This document shows, piece after piece, positions 2,420 through 27,585 of a stretch of DNA of 64,000 nt (position 1 is its first letter; the number at the start of each line of letters is the position of its first letter). Both the position numbers and the translations under genes were made by a program. Source of the stretch: a virus. The notes below the pieces were generated by a model, which ran no database searches, had not been told where the DNA came from, and saw nothing but the letters and a program-made list of their open reading frames with translations. Location of the stretch: positions 1 through 64,000 of the IMG/VR virus record IMGVR_UViG_3300045988_166195, one strand, 5' to 3'.

Positions 2420-2458
2420 TTTCTATCAATTCAGGATTCGGGACATCGATAGATGTCC
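2420..2458. promoter_or_regulatory. Copy 1 of a conserved ~40-bp element (tttctatcaattcaggattcggg) ending in the palindrome GGACATCGATAGATGTCC; divergent intergenic region
   Basis: Near-identical sequence recurs at 6053-6090 and 12848-12885. The palindrome read directly. Confidence 0.5.
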
Positions 2459-2548
2459 TGTTTCCAAGCGATCGAGGTCACAAGAGAGGTATTCTTATTG
2501 TGGTGTCAAGCCGAGCAACAAGAATCTGAGAATCAAGGAGGATCAAGC

Positions 2549-3400
2549 ATGAAGAAGCGAGAGATTATGGCGATTGCGAGGGCCCTGGGTGGAATCATGG
2601 AAGATAAGAGAAGCGCAAAGAGAAGCCCAGGGTATTCTGTCACGCAACGCATCAAGCAGATTAATCAACCAAGAGGTGGCTATATCAACCCGAGGACACT
2701 TGAAGTTGTCTCTTTGGGTGATGGTATTGATGCGTTGAACCCAGGAGAGACTGTTAGTCCTGGTTTGATCGGCTCAGCTGTTGACTATCTGACTCGCTTC
2801 ATGTTGGGAGATCCTGCGAAGGAGGCTTTCGTGATTTCGATGTTGGGAGCGCGACGCATCGGAAAGCGTTCCGAGGCATCGCGCCTTATGGCCGGTATCA
2901 AAGGTCTGGATGACAGATCCATTACCAATGCCGTGAAGTTGGCTGGGTTTGATGTGTGCTTCCGCTCCAATCCCGGAAATTATCGCCCAGTTGAGGGGAT
3001 CAACCCCGATGAGTCAACGATCCAGAACGTAAGGACGATGGTCGAACGTTCGCTTCGTTTCTTCGATGAGTATGGTCCTGTAGTGTTCGGTGGGTTTACG
3101 TTCGAGGGCGGATATACAAACACCGTCAGTTCCGGTGACGGGGACTTCATGACAGCCGATACACTCTGGGATTTCAAGGTATCGAAAGCGCGCCCAACGA
3201 AGAGCCATACGCTTCAGGTGCTCATGTATTGGCGCATGGGTCTTCGTTCGATTCACACAGAGTTCCAGAATGTCAAGTACCTGGGCATCTACAACCCGCG
3301 TCTGAATGAGGTCTATCGGATCAGCGTTGATGCCATCCCTCGGGATGTGATTGCCGAGGTCGATCGAGACGTGATCGGTTACCCTGTGCGTCGGTTGTGA
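2549..3400 (+). CDS. Hypothetical protein; possible PD-(D/E)xK nuclease fold (GDGDF...DFK)
   Basis: Start chosen at MKKREIM, preceded by AAGGAGG. The track start at 2453 lies inside the palindromic element. Weak motif D-x12-D-x-K only. Confidence 0.5.
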   Translation: MKKREIMAIARALGGIMEDKRSAKRSPGYSVTQRIKQINQPRGGYINPRTLEVVSLGDGIDALNPGETVSPGLIGSAVDYLTRFMLGDPAKEAFVISMLGARRIGKRSEASRLMAGIKGLDDRSITNAVKLAGFDVCFRSNPGNYRPVEGINPDESTIQNVRTMVERSLRFFDEYGPVVFGGFTFEGGYTNTVSSGDGDFMTADTLWDFKVSKARPTKSHTLQVLMYWRMGLRSIHTEFQNVKYLGIYNPRLNEVYRISVDAIPRDVIAEVDRDVIGYPVRRL

Positions 3401-3413
3401 CCAGACCCAAGAA

Positions 3414-3500
3414 AAAATAGCTCCCCCACCCCGCCTCGTTCTCTGTTGAACGTACGTCGCCGTACTGTTCTCGGAGAGGGTAGGGGTAGGGGAGCTATGT
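3414..3500. terminator. Extended GC-rich stem-loop (atagctcccc ... ggggagctat) between convergent genes; bidirectional terminator candidate
   Basis: Inverted repeat with A-run on the left, located between the stop of the plus gene (3400) and the stop of the minus gene (3515). Confidence 0.5.
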
Positions 3501-3514
3501 CAGCCGAGTCTTCT

Positions 3515-3937
3515 TTAGTGAAGCCACTCAATGTCAGGAGCTTTGTCTCCGAAGCATTCCTGCTCGTTTTCGTATAGGAAGATTTGGACAATCTTCCCAA
3601 AGGGAGCTCCGCTACCACGGATTTCAGAGAACTGCATGTACCGGTATGGTCCGATTCGGAAGTCAACGCGCCCATGCGTAACACTGCAATGATCCGCGTA
3701 GCTGTAATCGTTTCGGTACTCGGTCTCCAAATTCCAGTAGAACCAGCCTTCATCAACCACGTGGCCGATGTTGTAGTTCATGACACATCGATCAGAGTAC
3801 TTAGCGCTGTTCTTAATGTGAATGACCCTGTCATCCTTCAGCAGAATGTATGTATCTCGCCATTCACTGTAGATGCCTTTGGCTCCTACATCCGCCAGCG
3901 GCTTAAGGTCCTTGGTGCTGAATCGAAGTTCCTTCAT
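3515..3937 (-). CDS. Hypothetical protein (start at MKELRF)
   Basis: Six-frame ORF. Internal ATG chosen because the upstream part of the track ORF is low complexity. Confidence 0.5.
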   Translation of the reverse strand: MKELRFSTKDLKPLADVGAKGIYSEWRDTYILLKDDRVIHIKNSAKYSDRCVMNYNIGHVVDEGWFYWNLETEYRNDYSYADHCSVTHGRVDFRIGPYRYMQFSEIRGSGAPFGKIVQIFLYENEQECFGDKAPDIEWLH

Positions 3938-3975
3938 GTTTTTCTTTCTTGGTGTGTGTTTTGAAATGTTTTTTG

Positions 3976-6052: not shown

Positions 6053-6090
6053 TTCTATCAGTTCAAGATTCGGGGCGTTGAACAACGCCC
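6053..6090. promoter_or_regulatory. Copy 2 of the conserved ~40-bp element (ttctatcagttcaagattcgggg) ending in the palindrome GGGCGTTGAACAACGCCC
   Basis: Aligned by eye to copies at 2420 and 12848. Sits just upstream, in gene orientation, of the 5162..6004 gene. Confidence 0.45.
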
Positions 6091-9674: not shown

Positions 9675-10244
9675 TCACCACATGAGGCGGAATGCGATCG
9701 GATCCGGGTACAAGCGATCGAGCCTGATGATCGGCTTCACCGCGTCGATTGTGCGATGCAGGAACATCTCGTAGCCAACGAAGTTAACCTGGTTCAGCAT
9801 TTCGTAGGGAACGGGTAGTTGCTGATTGATGGCTTCACGGATGACATACGCACTCCAGTCCTCGGGATCCATGTGTCGCTTCGACGAGTTCAGAACACCA
9901 AGCATCATGTGGCATCGGGAGGCAAGGTCATCGAGCTGACCGAAGTCATTGATGATGTAACCATCGTAGAAGTCGATCGAATCCGGGTCGTCGTCATATT
10001 CCTTGACGCTGCACTTGAAGAAGTCGTAGAGGATCTGGGCTTCCGCCTCGCTCCACTGCATGAGCAGTTCTTCGTAGGGGAACTGCGTAATGATGTCGCG
10101 CATGTCACCGAGCATCATGGACGCGGCAATATGAGCAGCCATTGACGGATACATGTGCTGAAGTGCGAAGCTGCGCAGTTCCATCTGCGTGTCGGGCGGG
10201 ACATCCGAAATGTCTCGGAGGTAAACGAGCTGTGCGCCATTCAT
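9675..10244 (-). CDS. Hypothetical protein, paralog family B (with 12331..12792 and 12976..13509)
   Basis: C-terminus '...LYPDPIxx..W' and N-terminus 'M.G.QLVYLRDI' shared with the other two. Start at MNGAQLV with GAAAGGAG Shine-Dalgarno. Confidence 0.55.
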   Translation of the reverse strand: MNGAQLVYLRDISDVPPDTQMELRSFALQHMYPSMAAHIAASMMLGDMRDIITQFPYEELLMQWSEAEAQILYDFFKCSVKEYDDDPDSIDFYDGYIINDFGQLDDLASRCHMMLGVLNSSKRHMDPEDWSAYVIREAINQQLPVPYEMLNQVNFVGYEMFLHRTIDAVKPIIRLDRLYPDPIAFRLMW

Positions 10245-10277
10245 GGGGCGCACTCCTTTCTGTGTGTGATGTGGGAA

Positions 10278-10910
10278 TTACAGCTGGATAATGAGCTGTG
10301 GACCCGCGTAGCTTGGGTCATAGGTCGGATAGATGACGTACTCGATAAGATGGATCAAGCCGAACTTAGTCCAGAGCTCTTCTTCCCATCGAGCTGAGTT
10401 CTTTTTGGTGTAGTCGTGGTACTCGGGGCGATAGCAACCCTTAGCTTTATCTGCGGCAATTTCGAGAGTAATCTTGTACTGCATGATCAACTGTCGAAGC
10501 ACGACTGCTGTGATGCCCCATGTGGGTTCGAAACTACGAATGAGGTGCCCACGGTGAATGATGTCGATGTTCCAGTTGGTGGGCACGTAGTGTACGTACT
10601 TCCGATGCTGATGGATGAGATCAACCGTGACTTCCACAGATGTCTTCTTGGCAAGCTGAACAAGAATGCTCAGCGTCGTGTACTCATCGCTGCCGTGCTT
10701 GTTGTTCGGGCTCGGCACGTATGTCGCAGTGATCGTATGCGTTGCATCCGTCCAGTCAAGCGACATTGCCTTGTAGAGAAGGTCGTGGATCCTCTGACCG
10801 TTGCGGGGGATGAGCTTTAATGCAGAGAAGATCATGTCCGACGTAGTTCGGTTGATGTTGTTGATGTCCTTTGCGAAATCGAGTCGCTCCGGGTTGGGTG
10901 CAAGTTCCAT
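10278..10910 (-). CDS. Hypothetical protein, paralog family C (with 10936..11571)
   Basis: Shared blocks 'DxDWxDxTHxxxxxxVP' and '..WN.xxI'. Confidence 0.55.
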   Translation of the reverse strand: MELAPNPERLDFAKDINNINRTTSDMIFSALKLIPRNGQRIHDLLYKAMSLDWTDATHTITATYVPSPNNKHGSDEYTTLSILVQLAKKTSVEVTVDLIHQHRKYVHYVPTNWNIDIIHRGHLIRSFEPTWGITAVVLRQLIMQYKITLEIAADKAKGCYRPEYHDYTKKNSARWEEELWTKFGLIHLIEYVIYPTYDPSYAGPQLIIQL

Positions 10911-10935
10911 ATAGGTAAACCTTCTTTCTTGTTAG

Positions 10936-11571
10936 TCAGTGATGTCGTTTGGGTTGCTTGGTTCGGCGTTCCTTGACCATCTCCACGAGGTGATCCAGAC
11001 CGAGACGCAGGAAGGACATTTCCTGGCTCTGTGGCATGCCGTAGGTATGCATCTCATCGATAACGCTCTTGTCGATGTACTTGTTCTCGATTGCGAGTGG
11101 GACACCGAGTTGGATGGTGAGCGCGCGTAGCGTAGCGATAGCAGCGCCACCCGTGAGGTGATACTCGCGCTGATCGTAGATCTTCGTTTTGATGAGATTG
11201 AGGTTCCATTCCAACGGAATGTACCGAGTGTGGTACTCGGTGTGGTAATGACCCAGGAGTACAGATACCGACAGCAGTGTTGATCTGCTCGGCCCCAGGT
11301 CCTCCTTGATGGTTTCCTTCGTGAGGATGGTCAGGAGCGTACGATCGAGGCCGCGTAGTCTATGTCTTGGAACGAACTCTGTGTGTACTTCGTGTGTGGT
11401 GTCATTCCAGTCCATATCGATGATACGTTTTACGTCGAAGTAAGGTTCATTGTCATTGTCACCGGCGACCACCTGGAGCGGTGACAGGAGCGTGTCGGCC
11501 GTGCTTCGCGTTAGTTCTTGCATTTGAGTTGGGAAATCAAGAGGGCGATCGTACATGTGGCAGAGTTGCAT
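10936..11571 (-). CDS. Hypothetical protein, paralog family C (start at MQLCHMYDRPLDF)
   Basis: Internal ATG chosen. The upstream part of the track ORF is Arg/His-rich low complexity. Confidence 0.5.
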   Translation of the reverse strand: MQLCHMYDRPLDFPTQMQELTRSTADTLLSPLQVVAGDNDNEPYFDVKRIIDMDWNDTTHEVHTEFVPRHRLRGLDRTLLTILTKETIKEDLGPSRSTLLSVSVLLGHYHTEYHTRYIPLEWNLNLIKTKIYDQREYHLTGGAAIATLRALTIQLGVPLAIENKYIDKSVIDEMHTYGMPQSQEMSFLRLGLDHLVEMVKERRTKQPKRHH

Positions 11572-11600
11572 GGTTGTATCTTTCTTTTTGTGCGTGTGTG

Positions 11601-11807
11601 TCAGGACGGTCGTCGAACGACTGTGATACGTGTGGCCCACACGCGGATCTGGTCTGCGTCGATGACAGCACCGTCTCCGTGACGGTGCCACCTCTTATCA
11701 AGCTTCTTGCCCAGCGTGACAATGTATGACCCGGTGTCATCGATGTGCATGACATCAATAACCGTGCCGATCGGTAGAGTGTGGAGGTTGATCTTTTGGT
11801 ATGCCAT
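11601..11807 (-). CDS. Small hypothetical protein (68 aa)
   Basis: ORF track. Confidence 0.4.
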   Translation of the reverse strand: MAYQKINLHTLPIGTVIDVMHIDDTGSYIVTLGKKLDKRWHRHGDGAVIDADQIRVWATRITVVRRPS

Positions 11808-11812
11808 GGTTC

Positions 11813-12175
11813 TTAGCTTTCAGGTACGTAGATGATTATGAGCTCAGATGCGTGCTCGAAGCCAGACCACTGGCTGGATACGCCTGAGCGATCAATGCGG
11901 GGGTATTCTTCACCCTCTCGATCCAGCTTGACCCACGGCTCGCCCGTGTTGCTGGGCTCCTTGCGGAAATACCATGGATTCAGGTCAAATGTCGCGCGTT
12001 TGACACGCAAGACTGTACCGTCAGGCAGTTCGTCGAGACCTTCTGGATCAATGTCGACATTCTCGAAGAGGGGCTTGCCGTCGTCCCAGAACTGACCGAG
12101 GTAAACAAACTGGGGCACAATCCCGGTTTCGGAGATTTCACGACCAATCTCGGTTTGCATTTTGATGGCGTGCAT
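11813..12175 (-). CDS. Hypothetical protein (120 aa)
   Basis: AGAAAGG Shine-Dalgarno. Confidence 0.5.
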   Translation of the reverse strand: MHAIKMQTEIGREISETGIVPQFVYLGQFWDDGKPLFENVDIDPEGLDELPDGTVLRVKRATFDLNPWYFRKEPSNTGEPWVKLDREGEEYPRIDRSGVSSQWSGFEHASELIIIYVPES

Positions 12176-12330
12176 GACGATGCACCTTTCTGTTTTTGGG
12201 AAAGTGGAGGGGAGAGGATTCTTCTCAGTGTGATTATCGGAGCATCATCAGATGCTCCAGATATATAAAAGAGAAACAACCCCTCCAATGCACAGGAATT
12301 CCATGCATTGGGGGGGGTTGTGCGTGGTTG

Positions 12331-17996: not shown

Positions 17997-18155
17997 TGTG
18001 CTAGTATGATCACTGATCCTAGTAGAGGGTTGGTTCAGTACGTGGCCCCCGTGGTAGCTTGATGCTGCTGCGGGGGTTACGCATATCCACAGCATTCGCG
18101 CTGTGATAGAATGGCTCGTGTACCAGTAGAATCGACCAAGAAAGAGGTCCCACTT

Positions 18156-18869
18156 ATGACTGCCCCTGTGATTATGATGCCCGATGTTGACGCTGTTCCT
18201 GCCCTGATCGATCGCCGCGATGTGCCCACGTCGTTGGTTGGTTTCGTCGGTCTGAAACGATCGGGCAAAGACACTGCTGCGCAGGGTCTTATCGACCATG
18301 GCTGGAAGCGCATGGCGTTTGCTGATCCGCTTAAAGAGATGAGCATGAACCTGCGTGGCGTCTGGGTTGAGGTGCCAGAAGGTATCCATCTCGCTCATGC
18401 GGTTGGTGGCACGCCGCGCTATGGTGGCGGTTTCGCTAAGTACCATGAGGTAGTCGACGCTCTGGGTATGGAGAAGGCGAAGGATCTCGTGCCCGATGTG
18501 CGTACTGTTCTCCAAACGCTCGGCACAGACTGCGTGCGCGGCACACTAGGCGAGCGAACGTGGACGGACCTGACCGGCCAGCGTGTTCAGGAAGAGCTCG
18601 CGCGCGGTGAAGCCGTGGCGCTTACTGATGTCCGTTTCGATGAAGAGTTCACCCTCGTGCATGATCTCGGAGGTATCGTCATCGGCGTGTGGCGAGGGGA
18701 TCAGGATTCCCTCGATCGAGCACTGGTTGATGCGTCCGTTGGGGCGCTGGGTGCTGATCACGTGTCGGAAACCAACGCATACAGCCTGTTGCAGCGCGCT
18801 GATGTCGTGATCTGTAACTGCGGCTTTGTCAGCGACCTGCAACGTGCTGTCTGGGATATTGTTGGCTAA
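18156..18869 (+). CDS. Deoxynucleoside monophosphate kinase-like P-loop protein (T4 gp1-type)
   Basis: 'VGLKRSGKDT' P-loop and 'FADPLKE', as in phage dNMP kinases. GAAAGAGG Shine-Dalgarno before the ATG at 18156. Confidence 0.55.
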   Translation: MTAPVIMMPDVDAVPALIDRRDVPTSLVGFVGLKRSGKDTAAQGLIDHGWKRMAFADPLKEMSMNLRGVWVEVPEGIHLAHAVGGTPRYGGGFAKYHEVVDALGMEKAKDLVPDVRTVLQTLGTDCVRGTLGERTWTDLTGQRVQEELARGEAVALTDVRFDEEFTLVHDLGGIVIGVWRGDQDSLDRALVDASVGALGADHVSETNAYSLLQRADVVICNCGFVSDLQRAVWDIVG

Positions 18870-18894
18870 TAGCTGGCCCCAGTACTGCATATGT

Positions 18895-19040
18895 GGCGCT
18901 TATCTGGTCATAACGTGACCGGGTAAGCGCCGTTTTGCTTGATGTATGAGGCGAATGGGTGTATGATGGCCTATAGATGACCAGATAAGAACCATTCATC
19001 ATCTGGTTATGTGGTCCACTATTAGTCCAGATAAGAGAGG
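18895..19040. repeat. Iteron cluster: at least four copies of CCAGATAAG / CTTATCTGG in both orientations upstream of the parR-like gene; centromere (parC)-like site
   Basis: Read directly at cttatctgg 18899-18907, ccagataag 18981-18989, atctggtta 19001-19009 and ccagataag 19027-19035. Confidence 0.5.
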
Positions 19041-19049
19041 AACCTGTTT

Positions 19050-19487
19050 ATGCCACGACGTTTTACCGGCACTGTTCCCAGGCCCCAGTCTCGTCGTTTT
19101 CGTGTCTCGGTGCCTGAGGCCGATGAGTCGGTCCTCGCATGGATCGGTGCGCAGTCTGATCTCAGTGTATCCGTGCGCAGTCTGATCCGAGAGGCGATCG
19201 AGCGGCACGGGTATCGTGACGCGACGTGTTATCCGGTCCAGCAGCAACCGCGTCGAGGCCGTCCGCCGAAGTCAACAGAACAGGCAGAACAGCTTGAGAC
19301 TATTGACGGTCATCCGATCCCTGAGCAAATCGCTGCACTGGAACCAGACCGAGAACCGGAGCAGGAGCTTCTGATGGTTCCTGTCTCGCATGAGGATGTC
19401 ACCGATGAGCCTGACGAGTCTGCCGGTTTCGATGAGGCTGTCAATCCCCTTAACGATATGGAAGATATGCTTGGCGCACTGCGTTGA
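19050..19487 (+). CDS. Ribbon-helix-helix DNA-binding protein with acidic C-terminal tail (ParR/centromere-binding adaptor-like)
   Basis: 'RFRVSVPEADESVLAWIGAQSDLSVSVRSLIREAIERH' fits an RHH fold. Directly downstream of the iterons and upstream of the actin-like ATPase. Confidence 0.5.
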   Translation: MPRRFTGTVPRPQSRRFRVSVPEADESVLAWIGAQSDLSVSVRSLIREAIERHGYRDATCYPVQQQPRRGRPPKSTEQAEQLETIDGHPIPEQIAALEPDREPEQELLMVPVSHEDVTDEPDESAGFDEAVNPLNDMEDMLGALR

Positions 19488-19516
19488 GCCCAGACAAAAG
19501 AGAAAGTGAGTAACCT

Positions 19517-20839
19517 ATGACTTCTGCAATCCCTGCCTCTCTGAACACGATGTCGCTTCTTGGCGGTATCGATGTCGGTAACGGCTACGTCAAGGGTTTG
19601 GTGCGTGGTGAGCGTACCGACAAGGCTGGTAAGCCTGTCATCGACACGATCGATCTGCCCAGTGGCGTGGCTCTGATGACCAGGCCGAACTCGTTGCCGA
19701 AGCCTGATGTCGAGGCGACGGAGGTGTGTGCCGATGACTTCTACAACGACCTCGATGTGTCGTTCTCGTCCCCGATGGTGAGCAACACGTATCGCCACCT
19801 GTTCGGCAAGCGATCGCTTACTGCCAATGGCGCGTTCGATGAGTTTAACGTCGTGGGCCGACGCTCGAAGGCTGAGCAGGAGCTGTCCAAGGTGCTGATC
19901 CTTGGGTGCTTTGCCGCGAAGGCGCTACGTGACTACGTGGCTGTTGCGAAGGCTCTGCCCGCATCGGAGCTCATCGTCGACGCGCGTGTGGCTGTCGCTC
20001 TTCCGATCGATGAGTATATGCGTCATCGCACCAGCTACAGTGCTGAGTTCATGGGTGCAACGCACCTGGTGACCGTGCACAATTTCGAGACGCCCGTTGT
20101 GGTGCGCATTACGTTCCGTGATGTGGTGGTGATGGCCGAAGGTGCATCCGCGCAGTGGGCCATCACGGAGAAGGGCGTGCCACTCATGCAGGCGATGCTT
20201 GCTGACGTGCGTTCTCGTGGTCTCGCACTGGAAGGTGTCACGGCGGAAGATGTTCTCGCAGCCCGTAATACGATCGGTATCGACATCGGTGAGGGAACGA
20301 TTAACTTCCCGGTGTTCACCAACGGTAAGTTCAACGCAGACGCCTCTGTGACGTTCGGTGAAGGATACGGCACTGTGCTGACCCGTGCGTTGGAGTCCAT
20401 GGACGCGGAAGGCTTCCACACTGGTTTCACCAGCCGGAAGCAGCTGGCGGATTTCCTCCAGCGTGAGCCCTCGCCGTTGAAGCGCAACTTCTACAACAAG
20501 GTGCGTGCCTACGTCGATCGTGAGATCGAGTTCTTTGCACGAGCTGCATCTGACCAGTTCGGTCGCGTGCTCAGCGTCGTTGGTGCCACAACAGAAGTCG
20601 TGTTCGTGTTCGGCGGTGGCTCTGGCCCCGTCAAGAACGCGCTGTACCCGCTCTTGCTGAGCAAGGTGGCGGAGATGAACACCGAGGACGCAATGCCGGT
20701 TCTCTACCTGGATGCGTCGTACTCGCGGTCTCTGAACCGCGAGGGTCTGTACTCGATCGCTCAGGCGTCTGCTGCCAAGTCCAGCAAGCCTGCGAAGCGC
20801 TCTGCTGGTAAGAACAACAGCAAGAAGAACGGAGAGTGA
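19517..20839 (+). CDS. Actin-like segregation ATPase (ParM/Alp/StbA superfamily)
   Basis: Phosphate-1 'GIDVGNGYVKG', phosphate-2 'GIDIGEGTINF' and adenosine 'VFVFGGGSG' motifs of the actin/Hsp70 fold. Confidence 0.75.
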   Translation: MTSAIPASLNTMSLLGGIDVGNGYVKGLVRGERTDKAGKPVIDTIDLPSGVALMTRPNSLPKPDVEATEVCADDFYNDLDVSFSSPMVSNTYRHLFGKRSLTANGAFDEFNVVGRRSKAEQELSKVLILGCFAAKALRDYVAVAKALPASELIVDARVAVALPIDEYMRHRTSYSAEFMGATHLVTVHNFETPVVVRITFRDVVVMAEGASAQWAITEKGVPLMQAMLADVRSRGLALEGVTAEDVLAARNTIGIDIGEGTINFPVFTNGKFNADASVTFGEGYGTVLTRALESMDAEGFHTGFTSRKQLADFLQREPSPLKRNFYNKVRAYVDREIEFFARAASDQFGRVLSVVGATTEVVFVFGGGSGPVKNALYPLLLSKVAEMNTEDAMPVLYLDASYSRSLNREGLYSIAQASAAKSSKPAKRSAGKNNSKKNGE

Positions 20840-20843
20840 CCGG

Positions 20844-22052
20844 ATGTCTACGTCTACGAGTCCATGGGATGATGCTTTGCGCCGTTACAGCGCGCGCGAG
20901 CACACGCATGATGACATCGTGACTGAGTCTGGTGTGGCGGCAGCTGATGTGACAGCTGCCGCCACCGGCGCTGCTCTGCCTAGTTTCGATGACATTGTGA
21001 ATGGCGATGGGACTAGCCCTGACAAGACTCAGTCTAAGGCCGGGTCTTTGGTCGTTCCGTCGAGTCTCGATGAGGTGCTGCATGATGCTGGGGTTGCCCA
21101 CGGTAAGCAAGGCACGCAGAACCCGAAGAACAAGCGGAGCAAATGGCGCGCTGCTCTGACAGCGATCGTGTGGCTTATCGTCATGAGTCTCATCTGTGGT
21201 GGTCTCTACCTGATCTATCGCGCACATGATGAGGCTCAGGTCGAGGAAGAGCTTCCGGTGCCTGCTCAGACGTATCAGGATGAGGAAGTCTCTACTGTGC
21301 CTGTCGAGGCTACTGATGATGTGCTCACCCACGAGTGGGATGTTGTCAACGCGGATTCGGACCAAGGGTCGAACACGTGGGAGGTGAACACCGAGGATTA
21401 CAGGATTGACACGATGTCGGTTGCTCGTATGGCTCCTGGATCTGTGTTCATCCCGGAGTCCGGCATCTACATGGAGCTTCAGGGGTCTGATTCGTTCGAG
21501 GCGTCGAACTATGGCGATCTTCAGACGATTCATGTGCCGACCAACGTGCACCGAGGTGTGTGGTATTCAGCTGGAGCACCTCTCACTGCATCTGATACTG
21601 GAGTTCTCACCGGCGTTCGTCCGGGGTTTGATACACCACAGTCTTCTGCTCTGCCTTCTTCTACCTCTTCTTCCGATACCGTGCAGTCTGGAACACAAAC
21701 AAGCTCAGCACACGCAGTGAGTATGACGGGTGGTGAGGGAACGACGTTCATCGCATCCCATGTGGCGTGGACAAAGCGTCATCGTGGGGCTCTGTACACC
21801 ATGGCGACGGATGTCTCTCAGAATGAGTTGATCTGGGTGAAAGGCTTTGATGGATCGCTGTCCACGTGGCGCGTGAGCGGCATGTGGGTGGCTGAGCATC
21901 AGGCGTTCCCGGAGGACTATTTCAGCGCCACTGGGCCGCGTCGGTTGGTGCTTACCACGTGTGGTGGCCGTGTGAACAGCTACGGTTACTACCAGCAGAA
22001 CGTGTTTCTGGTGGCAGAACCTGTGGCTCTGGAATCAGCGATGCAGCAGTGA
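20844..22052 (+). CDS. Membrane-anchored sortase-like transpeptidase (likely class E, specific for LAxTG)
   Basis: N-terminal TM helix. His in 'IASHVAW'. 'LVLTTCGG' resembles the sortase TLxTC active-site motif. Neighbouring genes carry LAxTG motifs. Confidence 0.5.
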   Translation: MSTSTSPWDDALRRYSAREHTHDDIVTESGVAAADVTAAATGAALPSFDDIVNGDGTSPDKTQSKAGSLVVPSSLDEVLHDAGVAHGKQGTQNPKNKRSKWRAALTAIVWLIVMSLICGGLYLIYRAHDEAQVEEELPVPAQTYQDEEVSTVPVEATDDVLTHEWDVVNADSDQGSNTWEVNTEDYRIDTMSVARMAPGSVFIPESGIYMELQGSDSFEASNYGDLQTIHVPTNVHRGVWYSAGAPLTASDTGVLTGVRPGFDTPQSSALPSSTSSSDTVQSGTQTSSAHAVSMTGGEGTTFIASHVAWTKRHRGALYTMATDVSQNELIWVKGFDGSLSTWRVSGMWVAEHQAFPEDYFSATGPRRLVLTTCGGRVNSYGYYQQNVFLVAEPVALESAMQQ

Positions 22053-22084
22053 TGCAGTGATCGCTGCGTAAAGCAATGCCCCGT

Positions 22085-22121
22085 AGCAGCGTGATGCTGC
22101 TACGGGGCATTGGTGTTGTTT
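22085..22121. terminator. Hairpin aatgccccgtagcagc/gctgctacggggcatt between convergent sortase and ssb genes
   Basis: 16-bp inverted repeat followed by a T-rich stretch. Confidence 0.55.
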
Positions 22122-22179
22122 GTGTATTCTGTTGTGCGATTCAGTTGTGATTGTTGATCAGAATCTTACCCTGTTCTTT

Positions 22180-22755
22180 TCAGAAGGGCATGTCCTGATC
22201 GAACCCGTCACCGAACGGATCAGACGCATTGAGTGCGTCGTCCGCGAAGACGGGAGCCTGGGAAATAGGAGCGGCCTGAGAAACAGGTGCAGGAGCAGCA
22301 ACCTGCTGGACGGGCGCAGCAACAGGGGCTGCAACAGGCTGAGAAGCCTGAGCAGCGCGGTTCTTCGCATCCTGCTCGGCGGCACGTCGGGCGAGACGTG
22401 CAGTGGTCACCTCGCGCTTTTCATCCATCTGAACGTCATCGACGATGTTCTTTGGGATGTAGTGGGTTTCTCCGGTATCGGGATCCGTGTACACATCGGT
22501 AGTCGGGTGGTGCATGACGGTCACCAGGTCGCCCTGGTGAATCATGTCAAAGACACCGTTTCCACGGTCGTTGGGGATGAAGCGCTCGACAGACACCGCA
22601 TCGGTGCCGCGCTCGCCGTTTCGCTTGGTGAAGTTCTGGTCGGCCAGAATGGTGAAGCGAACCGTACGCGAACCGTCCTTGTTGGTGAAGAAACGCGGAT
22701 CAGAGGCCAGGCGACCCTTGATAACACCGAAGTTCTTGGGGTTAATGTTTGCCAT
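22180..22755 (-). CDS. ssb: Single-stranded DNA-binding protein
   Basis: OB-fold N-terminal region (MANINPKNFGVIKGRLASDP...), Pro/Gln/Ala-rich linker and acidic C-terminal 'DGFDQDMPF' tail. Confidence 0.85.
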   Translation of the reverse strand: MANINPKNFGVIKGRLASDPRFFTNKDGSRTVRFTILADQNFTKRNGERGTDAVSVERFIPNDRGNGVFDMIHQGDLVTVMHHPTTDVYTDPDTGETHYIPKNIVDDVQMDEKREVTTARLARRAAEQDAKNRAAQASQPVAAPVAAPVQQVAAPAPVSQAAPISQAPVFADDALNASDPFGDGFDQDMPF

Positions 22756-22814
22756 TTGTGTATCTCCTTCGTATGGCGAGTGGTGGATCTTATGATCCTC
22801 TATCAATAATTATC

Positions 22815-23132
22815 CTAGTACATCTGCGATGTACGAAAGGGATTCTTAGTCTTCCTTGAAGAAGACTTTTTGTGATCACTGCTGATCTCGATCAGCAGCT
22901 CCATGGTTGGTCGATAGACGCTATCGACAATCACAACGGGTGCGTCATATGCCTGTAGGAGCTTGAAAAGCACGCCGTTTGGGATGATGTCACCACTGTT
23001 GCTATTGACCCACTGACTATGCCCAATAGACATGAACGTGGGGTCGTGATAACCGTTGGTATCAATGACAGTACCGGGTTTGAAGTATTCCAGGTCATAG
23101 GGCTCTGTGATGGTGATGAGTTCACGATTCAT
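22815..23132 (-). CDS. Hypothetical protein (105 aa)
   Basis: ORF track. Its 3' end overlaps the operator palindrome at 22818-22834. Confidence 0.45.
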   Translation of the reverse strand: MNRELITITEPYDLEYFKPGTVIDTNGYHDPTFMSIGHSQWVNSNSGDIIPNGVLFKLLQAYDAPVVIVDSVYRPTMELLIEISSDHKKSSSRKTKNPFRTSQMY

Positions 23133-23147
23133 GGTTCTACTCGTTTC

Positions 23148-23519
23148 TCAGAACTGGGTGAATTTGAATTCACCAGTCAGTTCGTCGGTGATGAACTCGA
23201 CCATCTCTTCCATGTCCTTCTTGACACCGGAGTCGCCAACCCAGTGGTTCGGTTTGCCGTTCTTGTGGACACTGTAAGAGACAGATTCTTCATCGGTCCA
23301 CGTTCCTTCAAGATCCATCATTCCGAAAGGGCAGCTATAAAAGTAAGTGTGGTTGTTAAACCTTACGACGGTGCCAGCATCAAGAAGCTCACCGTAAGGA
23401 CGGTTTGAGAGGGCAGTGGTGTCCTTGTTTTTGACAGGAATTTCAACATCGCGCATCTTCCACGTTAGTGCACAGTACAGTTCGTTCAGTTCATTGAGCG
23501 GGTTTGTGTTTGTAGTCAT
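23148..23519 (-). CDS. Hypothetical protein (123 aa)
   Basis: ORF track. Confidence 0.5.
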   Translation of the reverse strand: MTTNTNPLNELNELYCALTWKMRDVEIPVKNKDTTALSNRPYGELLDAGTVVRFNNHTYFYSCPFGMMDLEGTWTDEESVSYSVHKNGKPNHWVGDSGVKKDMEEMVEFITDELTGEFKFTQF

Positions 23520-23742
23520 TTTTCAAAGCCTCTAATTTTTACTTGTTTTCCTTCATGCTGGAATTCATGATCTCTTCAGCGACGCACGTACTGCAACAAT
23601 TATTGTCGCCCATGCCCTTTTCGAAGGCCGTTTCCAGTGCGTCTGCGAGCCAAGCTTTAGAGACGGTGAATGTTCCATCGTCATTACGCTTGATGCCGTT
23701 AGCCGTTGATCTATCTTTCTATTTTTTGTTTGTAGTGTGTAT

Positions 23743-23789
23743 AAAGAAAGCGCCGGAATCATTACGAATTCGAAACCGGCGCTTTCTTT
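23743..23789. terminator. Hairpin aaagaaagcgccgg/ccggcgctttcttt; bidirectional rho-independent terminator
   Basis: 14-bp perfect inverted repeat with flanking A/T runs. Confidence 0.6.
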
Positions 23790-23791
23790 AG

Positions 23792-24118
23792 TCAGTTGGT
23801 CTCGTACATGATGTCGACTCCGAAAGCGAGCGCGGCCTGGTGCTCCAGGGTGCATCCTCGCGTAGTGTCCCATCCGTCGCACATGTAGATCACGTGTGCC
23901 TGTGAGAGGCGTGCCAGCGCGAGACCCATGTGCCACAGTGCAGGATTGACGATATTGTCGCTGTCGACATCGTACGTGAAGTCCTCCTTGTAGACAGTAT
24001 CAATAGGCTCATAGCCAGCAGCTCGAACAGCGGCCTCGGCCTTCTCTCGCTGCAACTTGACCTTATCGGGATCGACATTCTTCATGGGCTGGGAAATGAC
24101 TGCGTACTTGGTGGACAT
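23792..24118 (-). CDS. DUF4406-like (nucleoside 2-deoxyribosyltransferase-like) small protein (start at MSTKYAVISQP)
   Basis: 'YMCDGWDTTRGCTLEHQAALAFGVDI' resembles the DUF4406 family. AAAGGAGA Shine-Dalgarno. Confidence 0.4.
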   Translation of the reverse strand: MSTKYAVISQPMKNVDPDKVKLQREKAEAAVRAAGYEPIDTVYKEDFTYDVDSDNIVNPALWHMGLALARLSQAHVIYMCDGWDTTRGCTLEHQAALAFGVDIMYETN

Positions 24119-24183
24119 TGTGGTCTCCTTTTTTTGGGGGGTATGCGTTGTTTTTACGCATGTCACGGGTGTGTGATGCGTAG

Positions 24184-24270
24184 TGGGCCAGGTAGGACTC
24201 GAACCTACGGTGTGTCGTTAACTGTGGCCGATTTACAGTCGGCTCCCTTCGCCGCTCGGGGCACTGACCC
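24184..24270 (-). tRNA. tRNA-Tyr (anticodon GUA), class II long variable arm, CCA not encoded
   Basis: Manual fold with acceptor GGGTCAG/CTGGCCC, anticodon loop CTGTAAA and T-loop GGTTCGAGTCC. Confidence 0.8.
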
Positions 24271-24412
24271 TTTTATCCCCCTTTTTTTGGGAGGGGGATA
24301 TAGACTATGGCCACCATATGGGTTTCTCATCAGACGTATGGTGGCCTTTGGCTGAAGTCAATAATCAGCCGCGAGTAGTCACCCGCAATACAAGTGTCTC
24401 GCACTTGTATCG

Positions 24413-24486
24413 TCGGAATGGCGGGATTCGAACCCGCGACCCCCTGCTCCCAAAGCAGGTGCGCTACCAAGCTGCGCCACATTCCG
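24413..24486 (-). tRNA. tRNA-Pro (anticodon UGG)
   Basis: CGGAATGTGGCGCAGCTTGGTAGCGCACCTGCTTTGGGAGCAGG...GGTTCGAATCCCGCCATTCCGA. Anticodon loop TTTGGGA. Confidence 0.85.
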
Positions 24487-24845
24487 TGCTGTTGTATGTT
24501 GTGTTGCAGGTTTGCTCTCCAGGCTCCAGATCACCTCTGTTAGTAGATAGGCCCGAAGAGCAAACCAGATGCGGTAAGTTATTAGAAAGGTGATTTCCAA
24601 CGGTTCCGCTACCGTCCTCAAGATTATCTCCCTGGACGGGGTTATGTGGGGGATGCTGTTCTGCTATCTATCATCGTAGTAGAACTTGACCAACAGAAAT
24701 TCACACACAAACGCCCAATGGCGCAATTGTTGGTCCTCGGAGTGCTACCCCGTACGTGATCCCCGATCACGGTGTCCGGCGCATCCGCTTGATCAGAGCG
24801 GCGAGAAACTATGTCTCAATCATCCAGCATTGCCCGGACACATGG

Positions 24846-24932
24846 TGGTCCCCTCGGTGGGATTCGAACCCACACGCTCTTCTGAGCACTTGATTTTGAA
24901 TCAAGCGTGTCTGCCAGTTTCACCACAAGGGG
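24846..24932 (-). tRNA. tRNA-Leu (anticodon CAA), long variable arm, CCA encoded
   Basis: Anticodon stem-loop CTTGA-TTCAAAA-TCAAG. T-loop GGTTCGAATCC. 3' end ACCA. Confidence 0.8.
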
Positions 24933-24981
24933 TTAGTGGTTGGAAAGTTAAGTACAGTACCAGTGTACATTACCTCCCCCG

Positions 24982-24998
24982 GTACATCTGTGATGTAC
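24982..24998. promoter_or_regulatory. Operator-like palindrome GTACATCTGTGATGTAC
   Basis: Near-identical to the palindrome at 22818-22834 (GTACATCTGCGATGTAC). Confidence 0.45.
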
Positions 24999-25066
24999 AA
25001 GGGGTACACACAAATATACACAGGGGAGGCAACATGAATTGGCTGACTGACTGTCTGGGCTGTCAG

Positions 25067-25330
25067 TTATCGGTGAGCAGGGTAAATGGGGATGTACGTA
25101 GCGATAGCCCGACGCCCCATTTCGATTTGCTCACCTAGATCTTCAGCGAGAGATTCATCATCCCAGTGACCACCGTCAGGGCTGATCCAGAGACGCTGAC
25201 ACTTCATGTACTGACGGTCCTCATGAGTCATCTGTTCAGTTGGGCCGACAGTGATGATCAGCGTTCCTACTGGGAGAGAACTCAGATCGGTTTCACCGTT
25301 TCTATCGAGAAACGCAACAGTAGTAGACAT
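25067..25330 (-). CDS. Hypothetical protein (87 aa)
   Basis: ORF track. Confidence 0.45.
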   Translation of the reverse strand: MSTTVAFLDRNGETDLSSLPVGTLIITVGPTEQMTHEDRQYMKCQRLWISPDGGHWDDESLAEDLGEQIEMGRRAIATYIPIYPAHR

Positions 25331-25342
25331 GTGTCGTTCCTA

Positions 25343-25729
25343 TCAGTTCTCGGAGTTCTCAGCAGCGTTCTCGGCAGTGGGTGCAGCGTGCGCAGCCTCG
25401 TAGGCAGCGATGGTGTCCTGACCCAGCTGGCCTCGCTTGGAGACGGTCACACTGTTCTCCAGAGCCCAGGCACGGATCTGGGCGTTCTTTTGCCGCTTGG
25501 CGCGAGCAGCTTCGCTGGAGCTGCGCGGCTTGCGCTTGTTGGCCGGTCCACGGCGAGCACGACGAGCATGCTCAATGTAAGGCGCGAGTGCTGCATTGAA
25601 TGCAGTCGCGTTGGCCTCAGAAAGATCGATGATGTAGTTCTTACCGCCCACGTTGAACTCAATGGTGGTGGTAGCAGGCGAACCGTCGATGTCATCGACG
25701 AGCTGAACGTCCGTAATTTCCTTGCGCAT
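25343..25729 (-). CDS. lsr2: Lsr2-like nucleoid-associated protein (H-NS analogue of Actinobacteria); start at MRKEITDVQL
   Basis: N-terminal 'TIEFNVGGKNYIIDLSEANATAFNAALAPYIEHAR' and C-terminal 'RAWALENSVTVSKRGQLGQDTIAAYEAAH' match the Lsr2 domain architecture. Confidence 0.7.
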   Translation of the reverse strand: MRKEITDVQLVDDIDGSPATTTIEFNVGGKNYIIDLSEANATAFNAALAPYIEHARRARRGPANKRKPRSSSEAARAKRQKNAQIRAWALENSVTVSKRGQLGQDTIAAYEAAHAAPTAENAAENSEN

Positions 25730-25776
25730 TGTTTTCTCCTGTTTCTCTTTCTGTTGTTCTTGAAAAGAGAGAGGCT

Positions 25777-25808
25777 CCAGAGAGTATTGCATCTCCAGAG
25801 CCTCTCTC
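25777..25808. terminator. Hairpin agagaggctc/gagcctctct downstream of the surface-protein gene
   Basis: 10-bp inverted repeat read directly. Confidence 0.5.
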
Positions 25809-25846
25809 CTTGTTCCTATGTCACAGCTACTGACTCACGTCAGTCG

Positions 25847-27502
25847 TCAGTTGTTGTTCTGACGACGACGCAGCAGAAGCGCAATGCCACCAGCCGTAAC
25901 GAGTGCAGTTGCACCCGCAATCATCAGGCCAGTGTCGCTGGCACCGGTCTGAGCCAGACCCGTGACAGCACCCTTGTGCTCAGTCGTGCTATTACCCGGC
26001 TTGTCCGGGGTAGACGGAGCAGGTGGGGTCTGCTTAGAGGGCTGAGAGGGGGTCTCCTTGGGCTCAGGCTTCTCAGGCGTGGCAGGCGGAGTCACGCTGG
26101 GCTCCGAAGGCTTGGGATCCGGCGTAGGAGCAGGGTCCGTAGGCTCCGAGGGCTTCGAAGGTTCCGGCTTGGGCTTCTCAGGCGTGGACGGCTGAGACGG
26201 CTCAGGCTCAGGAGTGGGCGCAGGCGGCGTCACCGGGGGAACGCTGGGCTCCGGCGTGGGCTTCGGATCAGGGTTAGGAGTCGGCTGCTCCGGGGTCGGC
26301 TTGGGATCCGGCTTCGGGGTGTCCGGGGTCGGATCTGGCGTAGGAGCAGGCTTCTCGGGTTCCGGGGTGACAGGAGGCGTAGACGGCTTGGGGTCCGGCT
26401 TCGGCTCAGGGGTCGGAGCGGGAGTCGGCGTGACCGGCTTCTCGTTCTCGCCCGTCTCAGCACCAGACGAGCCCTTGGCTCGCCAGGTCACCGTGGTGCT
26501 GACTTCCTTGTTGTTGACCGTCGCCTTGTTCGTCATCTCCTTCTCGGAGGTGACAACCTCAACGCGGATGCGAGCCATGTGGTCACCCGACAGCTCGCTG
26601 GGGAGCGTGAAGGTAGCAGACTTGCCGTCTGCGCTCTTCGTGACCTTAGGCTTGGTGACTCCAATGTTGTTCCAGTCGATGGGGTTGGCCCAGTCGCCGT
26701 GATCAACAGGCGTGACGTGGATACCGCCCTGGAACGTGGCATCATCACGGGTTTCCGTGATGGTGATGGTCTGGCCAGGCTGGCCCTGGGCCTGAATCCA
26801 GCAGCCGAACTTGTTGAGGCCCTCGGCAGTACGACCGTCCGCCCAGCAGAACTTGTTGTCGCCAGGGGTGACAGGCTCACCGACGACACCCTTGCCCAAG
26901 CCGACGGTGTACTTCGTACCGTCGACGACGACGTTGGTCGTGGTCTTGCCGATGCTGGACTTGTTCAGCGTGGCTTCGAGCTTGACGAAGCCATTCTTGA
27001 GCGACCCATTACCGCCCAGAGTTGCAGCGATGTCCTCGGTGACGACACAGTTGAATGCGCCGTTCTCGGCGGTACACTTACCGATCTTCTTCTCAGAGCC
27101 ATCCAAGGCGGTGGCCTTGAGATCGACACTGTTGAATCCGTTGGGCACCTGGAGGCCGTCCCCGAGGCCCACCGAGAAGGTGGCGCCCTTCTCGACCTTG
27201 TCACCCGCGTAATCAACGCGGATGTCCAAGGTGGCGTTCACGGAGTACTTGTCTCCGTAACGGCCCTTAACATCAGTCTTGACGATCTTGATGCCGCCCG
27301 TGGCGGTGGACGCACCGGGCTCGGTGCCGACGATGCCGTTGTTACCATCGGCAGATGCCGAGTTGGTGTCAGTGTTGTTGGCTGCGCCGTTGGTGTTCGT
27401 GGTAGCGGCCTGAGCAGCCATAGGGGCTGCAAACAGAAGCGTGGTGGCGACCACAAGGGTCAGCCCGGACTTTCGCTTCTTGAAAATCTTGTTGAGATTC
27501 AT
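25847..27502 (-). CDS. Cell-wall-anchored surface protein with LAQTG sorting signal and long Pro-rich (PTPEPKPDP) stalk
   Basis: N-terminal signal peptide. C-terminal 'LAQTG', hydrophobic segment and 'RRRQNNN' tail. PTPxP repeats. Confidence 0.75.
   Translation of the reverse strand: MNLNKIFKKRKSGLTLVVATTLLFAAPMAAQAATTNTNGAANNTDTNSASADGNNGIVGTEPGASTATGGIKIVKTDVKGRYGDKYSVNATLDIRVDYAGDKVEKGATFSVGLGDGLQVPNGFNSVDLKATALDGSEKKIGKCTAENGAFNCVVTEDIAATLGGNGSLKNGFVKLEATLNKSSIGKTTTNVVVDGTKYTVGLGKGVVGEPVTPGDNKFCWADGRTAEGLNKFGCWIQAQGQPGQTITITETRDDATFQGGIHVTPVDHGDWANPIDWNNIGVTKPKVTKSADGKSATFTLPSELSGDHMARIRVEVVTSEKEMTNKATVNNKEVSTTVTWRAKGSSGAETGENEKPVTPTPAPTPEPKPDPKPSTPPVTPEPEKPAPTPDPTPDTPKPDPKPTPEQPTPNPDPKPTPEPSVPPVTPPAPTPEPEPSQPSTPEKPKPEPSKPSEPTDPAPTPDPKPSEPSVTPPATPEKPEPKETPSQPSKQTPPAPSTPDKPGNSTTEHKGAVTGLAQTGASDTGLMIAGATALVTAGGIALLLRRRQNNN
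25990..26460 (-). repeat. In-frame proline-rich coding repeats (PTPEP/PKPDP units) within the surface-protein gene
   Basis: Repeated ggcttcgg/gggtccgg units, giving PEPKPxP in translation. Confidence 0.55.
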
Positions 27503-27568
27503 TGGGTAACTCTTCCTTTCGTGAAGGGTGTGCTGGGGATGATGGGTTCATCCCCAGAGAAGATCTCT

Positions 27569-27585
27569 GCGCATCTGCGATGTGC
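27569..27585. promoter_or_regulatory. Operator-like palindrome GCGCATCTGCGATGTGC upstream of the surface-protein gene
   Basis: Core CATCTGCGATG shared with the sites at 22818 and 24982. Confidence 0.45.

Follow-up and report, generated by a model that had tools for sequence, protein, structure and literature searches.

How conjugative plasmids time their early establishment genes (ssb, anti-defence genes and the like), which act for a short time after entry into a new cell, is understood in few models, namely the Frpo single-strand promoters of enterobacterial plasmids and one ribbon–helix–helix (RHH) repressor of a Bacillus plasmid (PMC11541004, PMC6294495). Here we analysed 64,000 nucleotides of IMG/VR virus record IMGVR_UViG_3300045988_166195 (positions 1 to 64,000, hereafter the window, to which all coordinates and strands refer unless a related locus is named), which read as part of a ~119-kb conjugative plasmid with a MobL relaxase. 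An earlier note had listed five palindromes of the form ACATC-N3/4-GATGT in the window (sites 1–5) and had proposed a single dimeric regulator for them. We find that these palindromes are one module of a promoter-like cassette repeated along one strand, and that they appear to be kept constant in self-complementarity and position rather than in sequence.

The closest described arrangement is EGeRS2/Reg576 of the Bacillus plasmid p576. As here, it belongs to a pLS20-family conjugative plasmid with a MobL-type relaxase (PMC6294495, PMC8708921), a short motif recurs at the promoters of several operons whose establishment genes are small, mostly of unknown function and transcribed opposite to the conjugation genes, and an RHH protein is encoded among the establishment genes. 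The p576 motif is, however, a fixed heptamer (TTATCCC) arranged in direct-repeat pairs upstream of the −35 box or near the ribosome-binding site (RBS), with proven RHH binding, whereas the window cassette has a sequence-free perfect palindrome in the spacer and repressor binding is only putative. EGeRS1 of pLS20, also a MobL plasmid, shares with the cassettes repeated, structure-prone regulatory sequences directly before establishment operons, and its mechanism may depend on structure (PMC8708921). EGeRS1 measures 420–750 bp, is GC-rich and multi-branched, and displayed no constitutive promoter (PMC8708921), in contrast to the window cassettes, which are units of ~45–80 bp with one 7-bp stem and a −10-like box in intergenic regions of 60–160 bp. 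The cassettes resemble the establishment regulatory sequences of MobL plasmids in being repeated upstream modules, yet belong to neither EGeRS1 nor EGeRS2.

Two systems outside this group depend on base pairing. The early promoters of phage N4 also carry a short stem before the start (5–7 bp with a 3-nt loop in N4; 7 bp with 3–4 nt here), their non-conserved stem bases are free if paired, a C-G closing pair and G..A loops aid extrusion, and a protein that binds single-stranded DNA (SSB) is involved, one of the window cassettes standing before ssb (PMC4496689). The N4 hairpin is centred at about −11/−12 and has invariant bases that are read by a dedicated virion RNA polymerase (PMC4496689), whereas the window hairpin is centred at about −22, has no invariant loop or stem base past the outer G-C pair and is accompanied by no such polymerase in the window. 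Frpo and ssi elements of F-like and IncI plasmids resemble the cassettes in their association with ssb and early genes, co-orientation, several copies and intrastrand pairing (PMC11541004, PMC9849209). Frpo is, in contrast, an imperfect stem of ~300 nt that rebuilds a duplex −35/−10; six 150-nt regions of the window, folded as single-stranded DNA, contained no such stem and gave the 7-bp hairpin only (z-scores −0.1 to −5.4).

In repressor regulons such as those of Reg576 and kor, a motif recurs at several operon promoters, as the cassettes do here (9–11, all leftward); unlike here, one recognition sequence is common to all sites. The IncP kor regulon (KorA/KorB/KorC) places perfect palindromes at many plasmid promoters, each operator class being nearly sequence-invariant, whereas the arms in the window diverge yet stay complementary. 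MerR-type promoters hold a dyad operator, sequence-specific in each case, in an over-long spacer of 19–20 bp. In the window, a dyad fills an 18–19-bp spacer at the two cassettes where a −35-like box is visible (site 1 and a cassette at 6073), most sites lacking a clear one, and neither a MerR-family gene nor a MerR or helix-turn-helix Pfam match was found among the window open reading frames (ORFs) scanned. A cruciform-regulated tet promoter variant in which extrusion of a dyad represses transcription, a laboratory construct, was reportedly described by Horwitz and Loeb in 1988.

Presence and placement of the palindromes

All five palindromes are present: GGACATCGATAGATGTCC (2441–2458), GGACATCGAAGATGTCC (12869–12885), GTACATCTGCGATGTAC (22818–22834), GTACATCTGTGATGTAC (24982–24998) and GCGCATCTGCGATGTGC (27569–27585). 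Four are exact copies of ACATC-N3/4-GATGT, and site 5 departs from it by one mismatch, a single non-complementary pair that is G.T on the + strand and A.C on the − strand. The broader pattern CATC-N2-5-GATG occurs 22 times in the window versus 9.8 ± 3.1 times in dinucleotide shuffles. Perfect palindromes with 7-bp arms, a 3–4-nt centre and a CATC core number five, whereas 200 first-order Markov simulations gave 0.105 on average and 2 at most (Poisson P ~1e-7); the fifth, absent from the earlier note, is GAGCATC-ATCA-GATGCTC at 12240–12257.

The CATC palindromes are absent from confidently coding sequence and not similarly frequent in coding regions, a comparison that the earlier note had itself asked for. 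The first ATG of ORF 2453–3400 (+) falls within site 1, and the real start of this gene is likely to lie at ~2549, behind an AAGGAGG RBS, rather than at ATG 2453. The promoter-proximal placement given in the earlier note also holds, the sites lying 62–76 nt before a start codon and site 4 ~50 nt before a tRNA-Leu gene, as does its view that they serve a co-ordinated set of minus-strand transcription units, the cassettes all being leftward. At site 5, a reading on the + strand (TGACTTCAG at the right distance) and one on the − strand (66 nt to an LPXTG-protein gene) each fit partly, and the overlapping ORFs beside it were not told apart by codon phase.

A composite with 18 specified bases, ACATC-N3/4-GATGT-N13-TTGATAGA, matched 22 DNA stretches in IMG/VR and was confined to relatives of the element, barring three likely chance matches (L176, L179 and L194) on contigs judged unrelated, two of which (L176 and L194) are AT-rich. 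The 18-base pattern is specific; a looser composite (15 specified bases) gave chance matches alone when the collection was scanned, and was dropped.

A repeated promoter-like cassette

Judged from the aligned sequences, the palindromes form one module, fixed in position and conserved in pairing, of a repeated promoter-like cassette that heads leftward transcription units, at least 9 and probably 11 of them in the window. A palindrome of 17–18 bp, with 7-bp arms and a 3–4-nt centre, is followed after 0–1 nt by a −10-like GAnnAT and after another 6–7 nt by an invariant GA. A small 5′ stem-loop comes next, then a CT-rich leader, an RBS and the ATG, and 62–89 nt separate palindrome and ATG at eight sites (108 nt at a candidate member at 31811). 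The 9-mer ATTGATAGA stands at a fixed distance after sites 1–3 on the − strand, and these are its only three exact copies in the window. When the 32 perfect 7-bp hairpins of the window were listed with their flanks, the downstream core recurred behind unrelated palindrome sequences: the core at 6073 (cgaatc TTGAAC TGATAGAACTCT) nearly matches the site 1 core, and in a second plasmid lineage the GC-type arms GGCACAC, GGCGCAC and GGCGCGA precede GAAAAT/GATAAT...GAC.

The −10-like hexamer takes the forms GATAAT, GATCAT, GAAAAT, GAGCAT, TAGGAT, TAAGAT and others; among 24 representatives, with a 0–1-nt offset allowed, position 2 is A in 22 and position 6 is T in 13. MAFFT, unprompted, moved the GC-type sites by 1 nt and so aligned both the −10-like GA and the downstream GA. 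If the hexamer is the −10 and the GA is +1/+2, the palindrome would run from about −13/−14 to −29/−31, the entire spacer, and the hairpin, numbered from the invariant GA, would be centred at about −22. A −35-like hexamer is optional, no clear one being present at most sites; the visible examples (GTGACA at 6073 and GAAACA at site 1) abut the palindrome, giving a palindrome-filled spacer of ~19 bp. We consider it very probable that the cassettes are sigma-A-type promoters that start at the GA. The GAnnAT register was preferred because it fits 22 of the 24 sequences and accounts for the shift of the GC type by 1 nt. Two other registers, an extended −10 TGnTAGAAA (15 nt past the palindrome) and a hexamer 6 nt past it (CAGAAT and similar), each suit some sites and fail others, and the possibility that the promoter lies upstream of the palindrome and the mRNA begins with the hairpin was rejected for want of a consistent −10 and for a 5-nt indel at the ssb site.

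The second small stem-loop, at the predicted start or up to 6 nt past it, co-varies too (GATAG/CTATC at site 1 and GACAGA/TCTGTC in its L187 orthologue; AGATCGT/ACGATCT, GGATC/GATCC or AGATCA/TGATCT at the ssb site), and fits a 5′-terminal mRNA hairpin. The palindrome itself is not the terminator of the preceding unit, because the cassettes at 6073, 12240 and 12869 lie 20–40 nt past separate GC-rich, T-tailed terminators. A terminator scan of 10000–29000, a range with five of the nine main sites in it, returned none of the palindromes, and the printed flanks contain no T run at any site.

The cassettes are strongly biased in strand. Across all family loci, unique perfect 7-bp hairpins with TGA at +13..15 make up 21 of 299 leftward and 6 of 298 rightward cases, the leftward count standing against a chance expectation of 4.7 (P ~3e-8). 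Genes on the + strand have ordinary extended −10 promoters (TGTAGAAT, TGTAGTAT, TGGTATGAT and TGATAGAAT) without a palindrome, and cassettes are not present in the 37–61-kb block.

Conservation of pairing

Orthologues were gathered by flank similarity alone, or by ssb anchoring in 48 metagenome loci, the latter set comprising 42 unique upstream sequences at 59–97% SSB identity. On these alignments, the conserved trait of the palindrome is evidently self-complementarity together with position, and not sequence. At sites 1, 2, 3, 12240 and 15073, the palindrome is perfect in every orthologue variant retrieved, and the centres vary freely (CTCG/CAAG/TTCG/CACA, TGAT/TAAT/TACT, GCA/ACA and TTC/GTC). 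The slot holds at least seven arm sequences in the window and ~15 in the family, the constant part being the outermost G-C pair. Over a near-identical core, site 1 gives a series from GGACATC through GGGCATC (L187) to the paralogue GGGCGTT; the ssb site has GTACATC, GTGCATC, GCATATC or GTGCATT with a right arm that matches each time; GGCACAC/GTGTGCC at 37054 is GACACAC/GTGTGTC in a near-identical relative; and at 31811, ATGCAAT is ATGCAAC in L023 with the other arm changed to match, a compensatory swap of the closing pair. Taking paralogues and orthologues together, compensatory double changes were seen at all arm positions but the outermost G-C, and in a 30-site alignment, stem pair 2 takes all four Watson–Crick types and pair 3 both A-T and G-C. 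Single mismatches are rare, and all five of transition type are G.T on the + strand of the window (sign test 0.03), which we take as a hint only, because one comes from a contig of 1.9x coverage and the + strand is rich in G and T throughout.

Candidate regulators

The proposal of a single dimeric regulator that reads an (A/C)CATC half-site is not borne out, given that the same cassette carries unrelated arms at 6073, 15073 and 37054 and that, even among close relatives, arms differ by compensatory pairs. A rigid single dimer is likewise unsupported because the centre is 3 or 4 nt. The earlier note had named two RHH proteins as candidates. The one at 37193–37501 (+) adjoins a cassette palindrome, of the GC type and not the CATC type; it has a Pfam Arc match (1.5e-4), as well as a weak NikA-like relaxosome accessory score. 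The other, at 19050–19487 (+), has repeats of its own.

The upstream region of this second protein (18870–19049) holds two direct copies of CCAGATAAG and no CATC palindrome; an inverted CTTATCTGG lies within a long terminator-like hairpin (18893–18933) beside a TGTATGAT extended −10. The CCAGATAAG/CTTATCTGG repeats are probably this protein's own operator set, unrelated to the CATC palindromes.

No regulator gene was found beside any CATC-type site. The other DNA-binding protein in the window is the nucleoid-associated Lsr2, and Pfam scans of the remaining small window ORFs yielded no further recognisable sequence-specific DNA-binding protein.

A possible structural gate and its alternatives

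The reading that we favour, tentatively, is that the palindrome acts as a structure-dependent gate, by virtue of an ability to fold into a hairpin or cruciform within the promoter spacer. It is favoured because only pairing is conserved, because G(N)NA centres are enriched and because the insertion of an N4 hairpin offers a precedent. Centres that read G(N)NA on one strand, mostly C-G-closed, number 6 of 11 against 1.4 expected (P = 0.001). This G..A loop type has been reported as required for the extrusion and stability of the small N4 promoter hairpins, and a 5–7-bp N4 hairpin placed between the rrnB −35 and −10 abolished promoter activity in vivo (PMC4496689). The physical state of the plasmid DNA would then switch host sigma-A transcription of establishment-type genes: DNA that has just arrived and just become double-stranded would allow use of the promoter as long as it is relaxed and has a spacer in ordinary duplex form, and negative supercoiling would extrude the small hairpins, so that the −35/−10 geometry is lost and the promoter is turned off. 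Plasmid SSB, the gene for which is under one cassette, might stabilize the hairpins. The fullest version of this scheme—zygotic induction without a repressor, in which hairpin-gated promoters would fire only in freshly transferred relaxed duplex, gyrase-driven supercoiling would shut the establishment regulon and SSB on the template strand may close a feedback loop—is speculative and rather unlikely. A symmetric protein that reads structure rather than bases would fit the same data.

Several points weigh against a structural gate or the pairing evidence beneath it. Palindromes in promoter spacers are usually operators, and the one at 37054 has an RHH gene beside it in the classic divergent layout. 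G..A loops occur in only about half of the centres and are lost in some orthologues, site 5 is imperfect in most relatives, and the stems are weak as single-stranded DNA (−4.3 to −8.8 kcal/mol). The 99.5% pairing of the 30-site alignment is partly built in, its sites having been picked for at most one mismatch, and therefore the diversity of pair types alone counts; template switching within a palindrome could yield symmetric double changes without selection for a hairpin. The −10, −35 and start are predicted, in a register read from alignments, and alternatives such as TGnTAGAAA as an extended −10 are possible. Short cruciforms are, moreover, generally predicted to need supercoiling beyond the physiological range (PMC4496689).

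The palindromes might instead be duplex operators for several plasmid-encoded dimeric repressors that block RNA polymerase from the spacer, with promoters firing after transfer until repressor accumulates (zygotic induction, as for Reg576 on p576 or IncP kor), an explanation that we regard as the main and a serious rival, though somewhat less likely than the gate. It would suit palindromes that fill the −35/−10 spacer of several co-oriented promoters and have arms well kept among close orthologues, the position of 37054 between back-to-back promoters, one of them for the Arc-like RHH gene (a typical autoregulatory layout), and the further GC-type copy that heads the operon at 15073; a precedent with the same relaxase type is the single RHH repressor acting on four establishment promoters (PMC6294495). 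Set against this are the at least seven arm sequences in the window and ~15 in the family for two RHH proteins and Lsr2 recognisable in the scanned ORFs, the CATC-type sites without an adjoining regulator gene, the 3- or 4-nt centre, and the operator heptamers of p576, which are near-identical direct repeats unlike these palindromes. The varying positions stay complementary, moreover, which a protein indifferent to them would not enforce and a protein reading the bases would not tolerate. That the hairpins serve as a signal of the single-stranded stage, starting RNA synthesis on the transferred strand in the recipient (early transcription of ssb and its neighbours, or primers for making the complementary strand) in the manner of Frpo or ssi, is improbable. 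Conservation of pairing rather than sequence, cassettes all on one strand, the five transition mismatches that are all G.T on the + strand (the template of the leftward genes), the richness of that strand in G and T throughout, and the presence of ssb among the cassette genes, as Frpo precedes ssb in F-like plasmids (PMC11541004), speak for such a signal. However, the 150-nt folds lack the long imperfect stem making a −35/−10 duplex that defines Frpo, sigma factors read a non-template −10 that is missing from a bare template strand, the G.T bias is possibly mutational and the 37–61-kb block is without cassettes. Neither a plasmid RNA polymerase nor a primase was found in the window, where the large ORFs, including those for 1102-aa and 708-aa proteins, gave no PDB or Pfam polymerase match, and by analogy with the nicked strand of pLS20 the leftward genes would have the transferred strand as their coding strand (PMC5313138).

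A role at the RNA level, in which the transcribed hairpin would serve for weak termination or insulation, for processing or for stabilization of the 5′ end, is distinctly improbable. Compensatory changes are the classic signature of an RNA stem, the cassettes lie between genes of the same orientation so that read-through RNA would include them, and past the predicted start comes another stem-loop, which is clearly part of the transcript. Against these stand the lack of a U tract on either strand, the strong separate terminators before three sites, the lack of a consistent promoter before the palindrome (at ssb, only 8–13 nt, varying by a 5-nt indel, separate it from the preceding hairpin), and the 0–1-nt spacing, which is fixed with respect to the −10-like box downstream; on the sense strand, moreover, the single mismatches read A.C, and an Rfam search found tRNAs only. 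Finally, the palindromes might have no function of their own and be chance or mutational by-products carried with duplicated promoter cassettes. The cassettes are clearly paralogous and some of their similarity is inherited, but the counts far exceed simulation, pairing stays perfect across 59–97% SSB identity while centres and flanks change, and the identical slot holds unrelated arms, all of which makes this last explanation extremely improbable.

Individual cassettes

All cassettes are described on the − strand; in seven of them the invariant GA, taken as the predicted start, falls at 2427, 6059, 12226, 12855, 15060, 22804 and 37041. Cassette 1 (2422–2458; site 1) reads GGACATC-tatc-GATGTCC (2441–2458), c, GAATCC, 6 nt and TGATAGA (2428–2422), with the predicted start at the GA, a stem-loop GATAG-aaact-CTATC and an ATG at 2375; its L187 orthologue has the palindrome GGGCATC/GATGCCC and the stem-loop GACAGA/TCTGTC. 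Two cassettes were not in the earlier note: one at 6054–6090, with GGGCGTT-gttc-AACGCCC (6073–6090), a core cGAATCT..TGATAGAACTCT, the −35-like GTGACA directly upstream and an ATG at 6001, and one at 12221–12257, with GAGCATC-tgat-GATGCTC, c, GATAAT, 6 nt, TGAGAAG and an ATG at 12175, placed ~22 nt past a terminator with a GC-rich hairpin and T tail. Cassette 2 (12850–12885; site 2) has GGACATC-ttc-GATGTCC (12869–12885), c, GATCAC, 6 nt and TGATAGA (12856–12850), ~31 nt past a terminator (12955–12915) and with an ATG at 12792. In L029 (~20090–20127), a long (CT)n microsatellite lies directly before the orthologue of site 2, replacing the TGTATATGTA of other relatives.

Cassette 3 (22799–22834; site 3), upstream of ssb (22180–22755, ATG at 22755), consists of GTACATC-gca-GATGTAC (22818–22834), TAGGAT, 7 nt and TGATAGA (22805–22799), after which a GGATC-ataa-GATCC stem-loop follows. 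Site 4 (24969–24998) is a loose fit: GTACATC-aca-GATGTAC (24982–24998) is extended by flanking CCCC/GGGG to ~12–13 bp and has GGTAAT 7 nt downstream without a TGA motif, upstream of tRNA-Leu (24846–24932). Site 5 (27569–27585), GCACATC-gca-GATGCGC, is degenerate, with one mismatch, and neither side offers a convincing −10; the ATG of the LPXTG-protein gene (27502) follows after 66 nt, with a second 10-bp hairpin in between.

Of the two GC-type cassettes, the one at 15059–15090, GGCGCTG-ctcg-CAGCGCC (15073–15090), GATAAA, 6 nt and GA, heads the leftward block from 15 kb to 2 kb and precedes a small Zn-ribbon-like ORF (ATG 14985). The other, at 37040–37071, GGCACAC-tccc-GTGTGCC (37054–37071), GAGCAT, 6 nt and GA, heads a SocA/Panacea-domain gene (36480–36977, −), and its palindrome lies 12 nt before the rightward extended −10 TGTTATACT of the Arc-like RHH gene (37193–37501, +), the divergent product of which is a candidate binder of GC-type palindromes. 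Two further sites are candidate members: CGTTTCT-cgat-AGAAACG with gtgaaa CCGATC TGAG (25297–25314), conserved in six related loci, and ATGCAAT-gaa-ATTGCAT with cggtag CAGTAA aga (31811–31827), for which the orthologue in L023 has ATGCAAC-att-GTTGCAT.

A conjugative plasmid filed as a virus

On its gene content, read from the 64-kb window with ~55 kb of the plasmid lying outside, the element is best described as a ~119-kb MobL-relaxase conjugative plasmid associated with Actinomyces and filed as viral in IMG/VR. The window encodes a MobL relaxase (58075–60414; Pfam 1e-62), a type IA topoisomerase with DUF3945 (41750–43963), a lysozyme-domain protein (52703–54640), a sortase, an LPXTG protein, an antigen I/II-domain protein, an actin-like segregation protein, SSB, a dNMP kinase and Lsr2. 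The 708-aa protein is common to Gordonia, Rhodococcus and Streptomyces megaplasmids (NC_018580, NZ_CP140265 and NZ_CP109461) and to staphylococcal and enterococcal MobL plasmids, as part of a conserved MobL-plasmid conjugation module; its gene adjoins the relaxase gene in Gordonia and Rhodococcus. The 1102-aa protein, polytopic in the membrane and ending in a tail of low complexity, has matches only in the three actinobacterial megaplasmids. A phage identity was considered and rejected, PHROGs and Pfam searches of the window proteins having given a relaxase, a topoisomerase and secretion-type proteins and not a capsid or terminase; in GenBank phages, the first 25 kb of the window had no near match bar a tRNA, and an exact-protein look-up of two window proteins found none on record. 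The relatives (L001–L025 and L196–L211) are IMG/VR contigs of 105–126 kb, several of them 118–120 kb, and two are binned in an uncultured Actinomyces metagenome-assembled genome; ERZ773054 NODE-19 and IMGVR_UViG_3300045988_168934 are complete members of the family in the 118–120-kb range. The host is apparently Actinomyces, judging by this binning, Lsr2 and the actinobacterial homologues. The 'viral' relatives, too, have a MobL relaxase, a type IA topoisomerase, the conserved conjugation module, a sortase together with LPXTG adhesins, an actin-like partition protein and Lsr2, with no capsid or terminase recognised, and look like conjugative plasmids misfiled as viruses.

A codon-usage gene map places genes of the + strand at 15.4–22 kb and 37–61 kb, the latter being the conjugation block, and genes of the − strand in blocks at 2.2–14.8 kb and 22.2–35.1 kb, which hold ssb, five tRNAs and ~30 small ORFs almost without family matches. 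The cassettes head ssb, tRNAs and many of these small genes of unknown function, all on the other strand from the conjugation genes. In pLS20-family plasmids, establishment genes lie opposite the conjugation operon, a layout that matches the window (PMC6294495, PMC8708921).

The tRNAs (24183–24932 and 30122–30287) are Tyr, Pro, Leu-CAA, Lys and Leu-TAG; the tRNA-Pro, 85% identical to that of Pseudomonas jumbo phages, is the sole GenBank-phage match in the first 25 kb. Between tRNA-Pro and tRNA-Leu, a conserved, structure-rich stretch (24700–24800) carries CGTGATC-N3/4-GATCACG with a centre length that varies among relatives; it was called neither by ARAGORN nor by Rfam at gathering score and could be a small RNA or a tRNA that has degenerated. 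Directly before the topoisomerase gene, a 719-aa ORF (39533–41692) has homing-endonuclease/HNH-like and DUF7487 matches and weak methyltransferase matches, and at the head of the 22–35-kb leftward block are two tandem paralogues (33521–35121) with a non-specific DNA/RNA endonuclease domain (Endonuclea_NS_2). Where L207 encodes a 933-aa ClpB-like AAA+ ATPase 3′ of the relaxase (13066–15867 of that locus), the window has small minus-strand ORFs; the cargo downstream of the relaxase is, by this comparison, apparently mosaic.

On the + strand, G exceeds C in all 2-kb bins but the first and T exceeds A in most, regardless of gene orientation, and the cumulative GC skew climbs monotonically past the first bin. 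This suggests strand-asymmetric mutation, perhaps from one strand being more often single-stranded or from unidirectional replication. The skew argues weakly for the + strand as the transferred strand, and the analogy with pLS20 (PMC5313138) points the opposite way.

Implications

Contigs of 105–126 kb that are listed as viral in IMG/VR bear hallmark genes of conjugative plasmids, as read in 64 kb of a ~119-kb element. The cassette described here is a compact, sequence-defined and tractable module in a widespread, uncultured plasmid family of human-associated metagenomes, the host of which is apparently Actinomyces. If the structural reading is true, the cassettes would be a natural case of promoter control by extrusion of small hairpins beyond phage N4, and a third solution to the problem of timing establishment genes. 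If several repressors act on them instead, the cassettes would still bound an establishment regulon and single out ~30 genes of unknown function that are candidates for a part in anti-defence or establishment.

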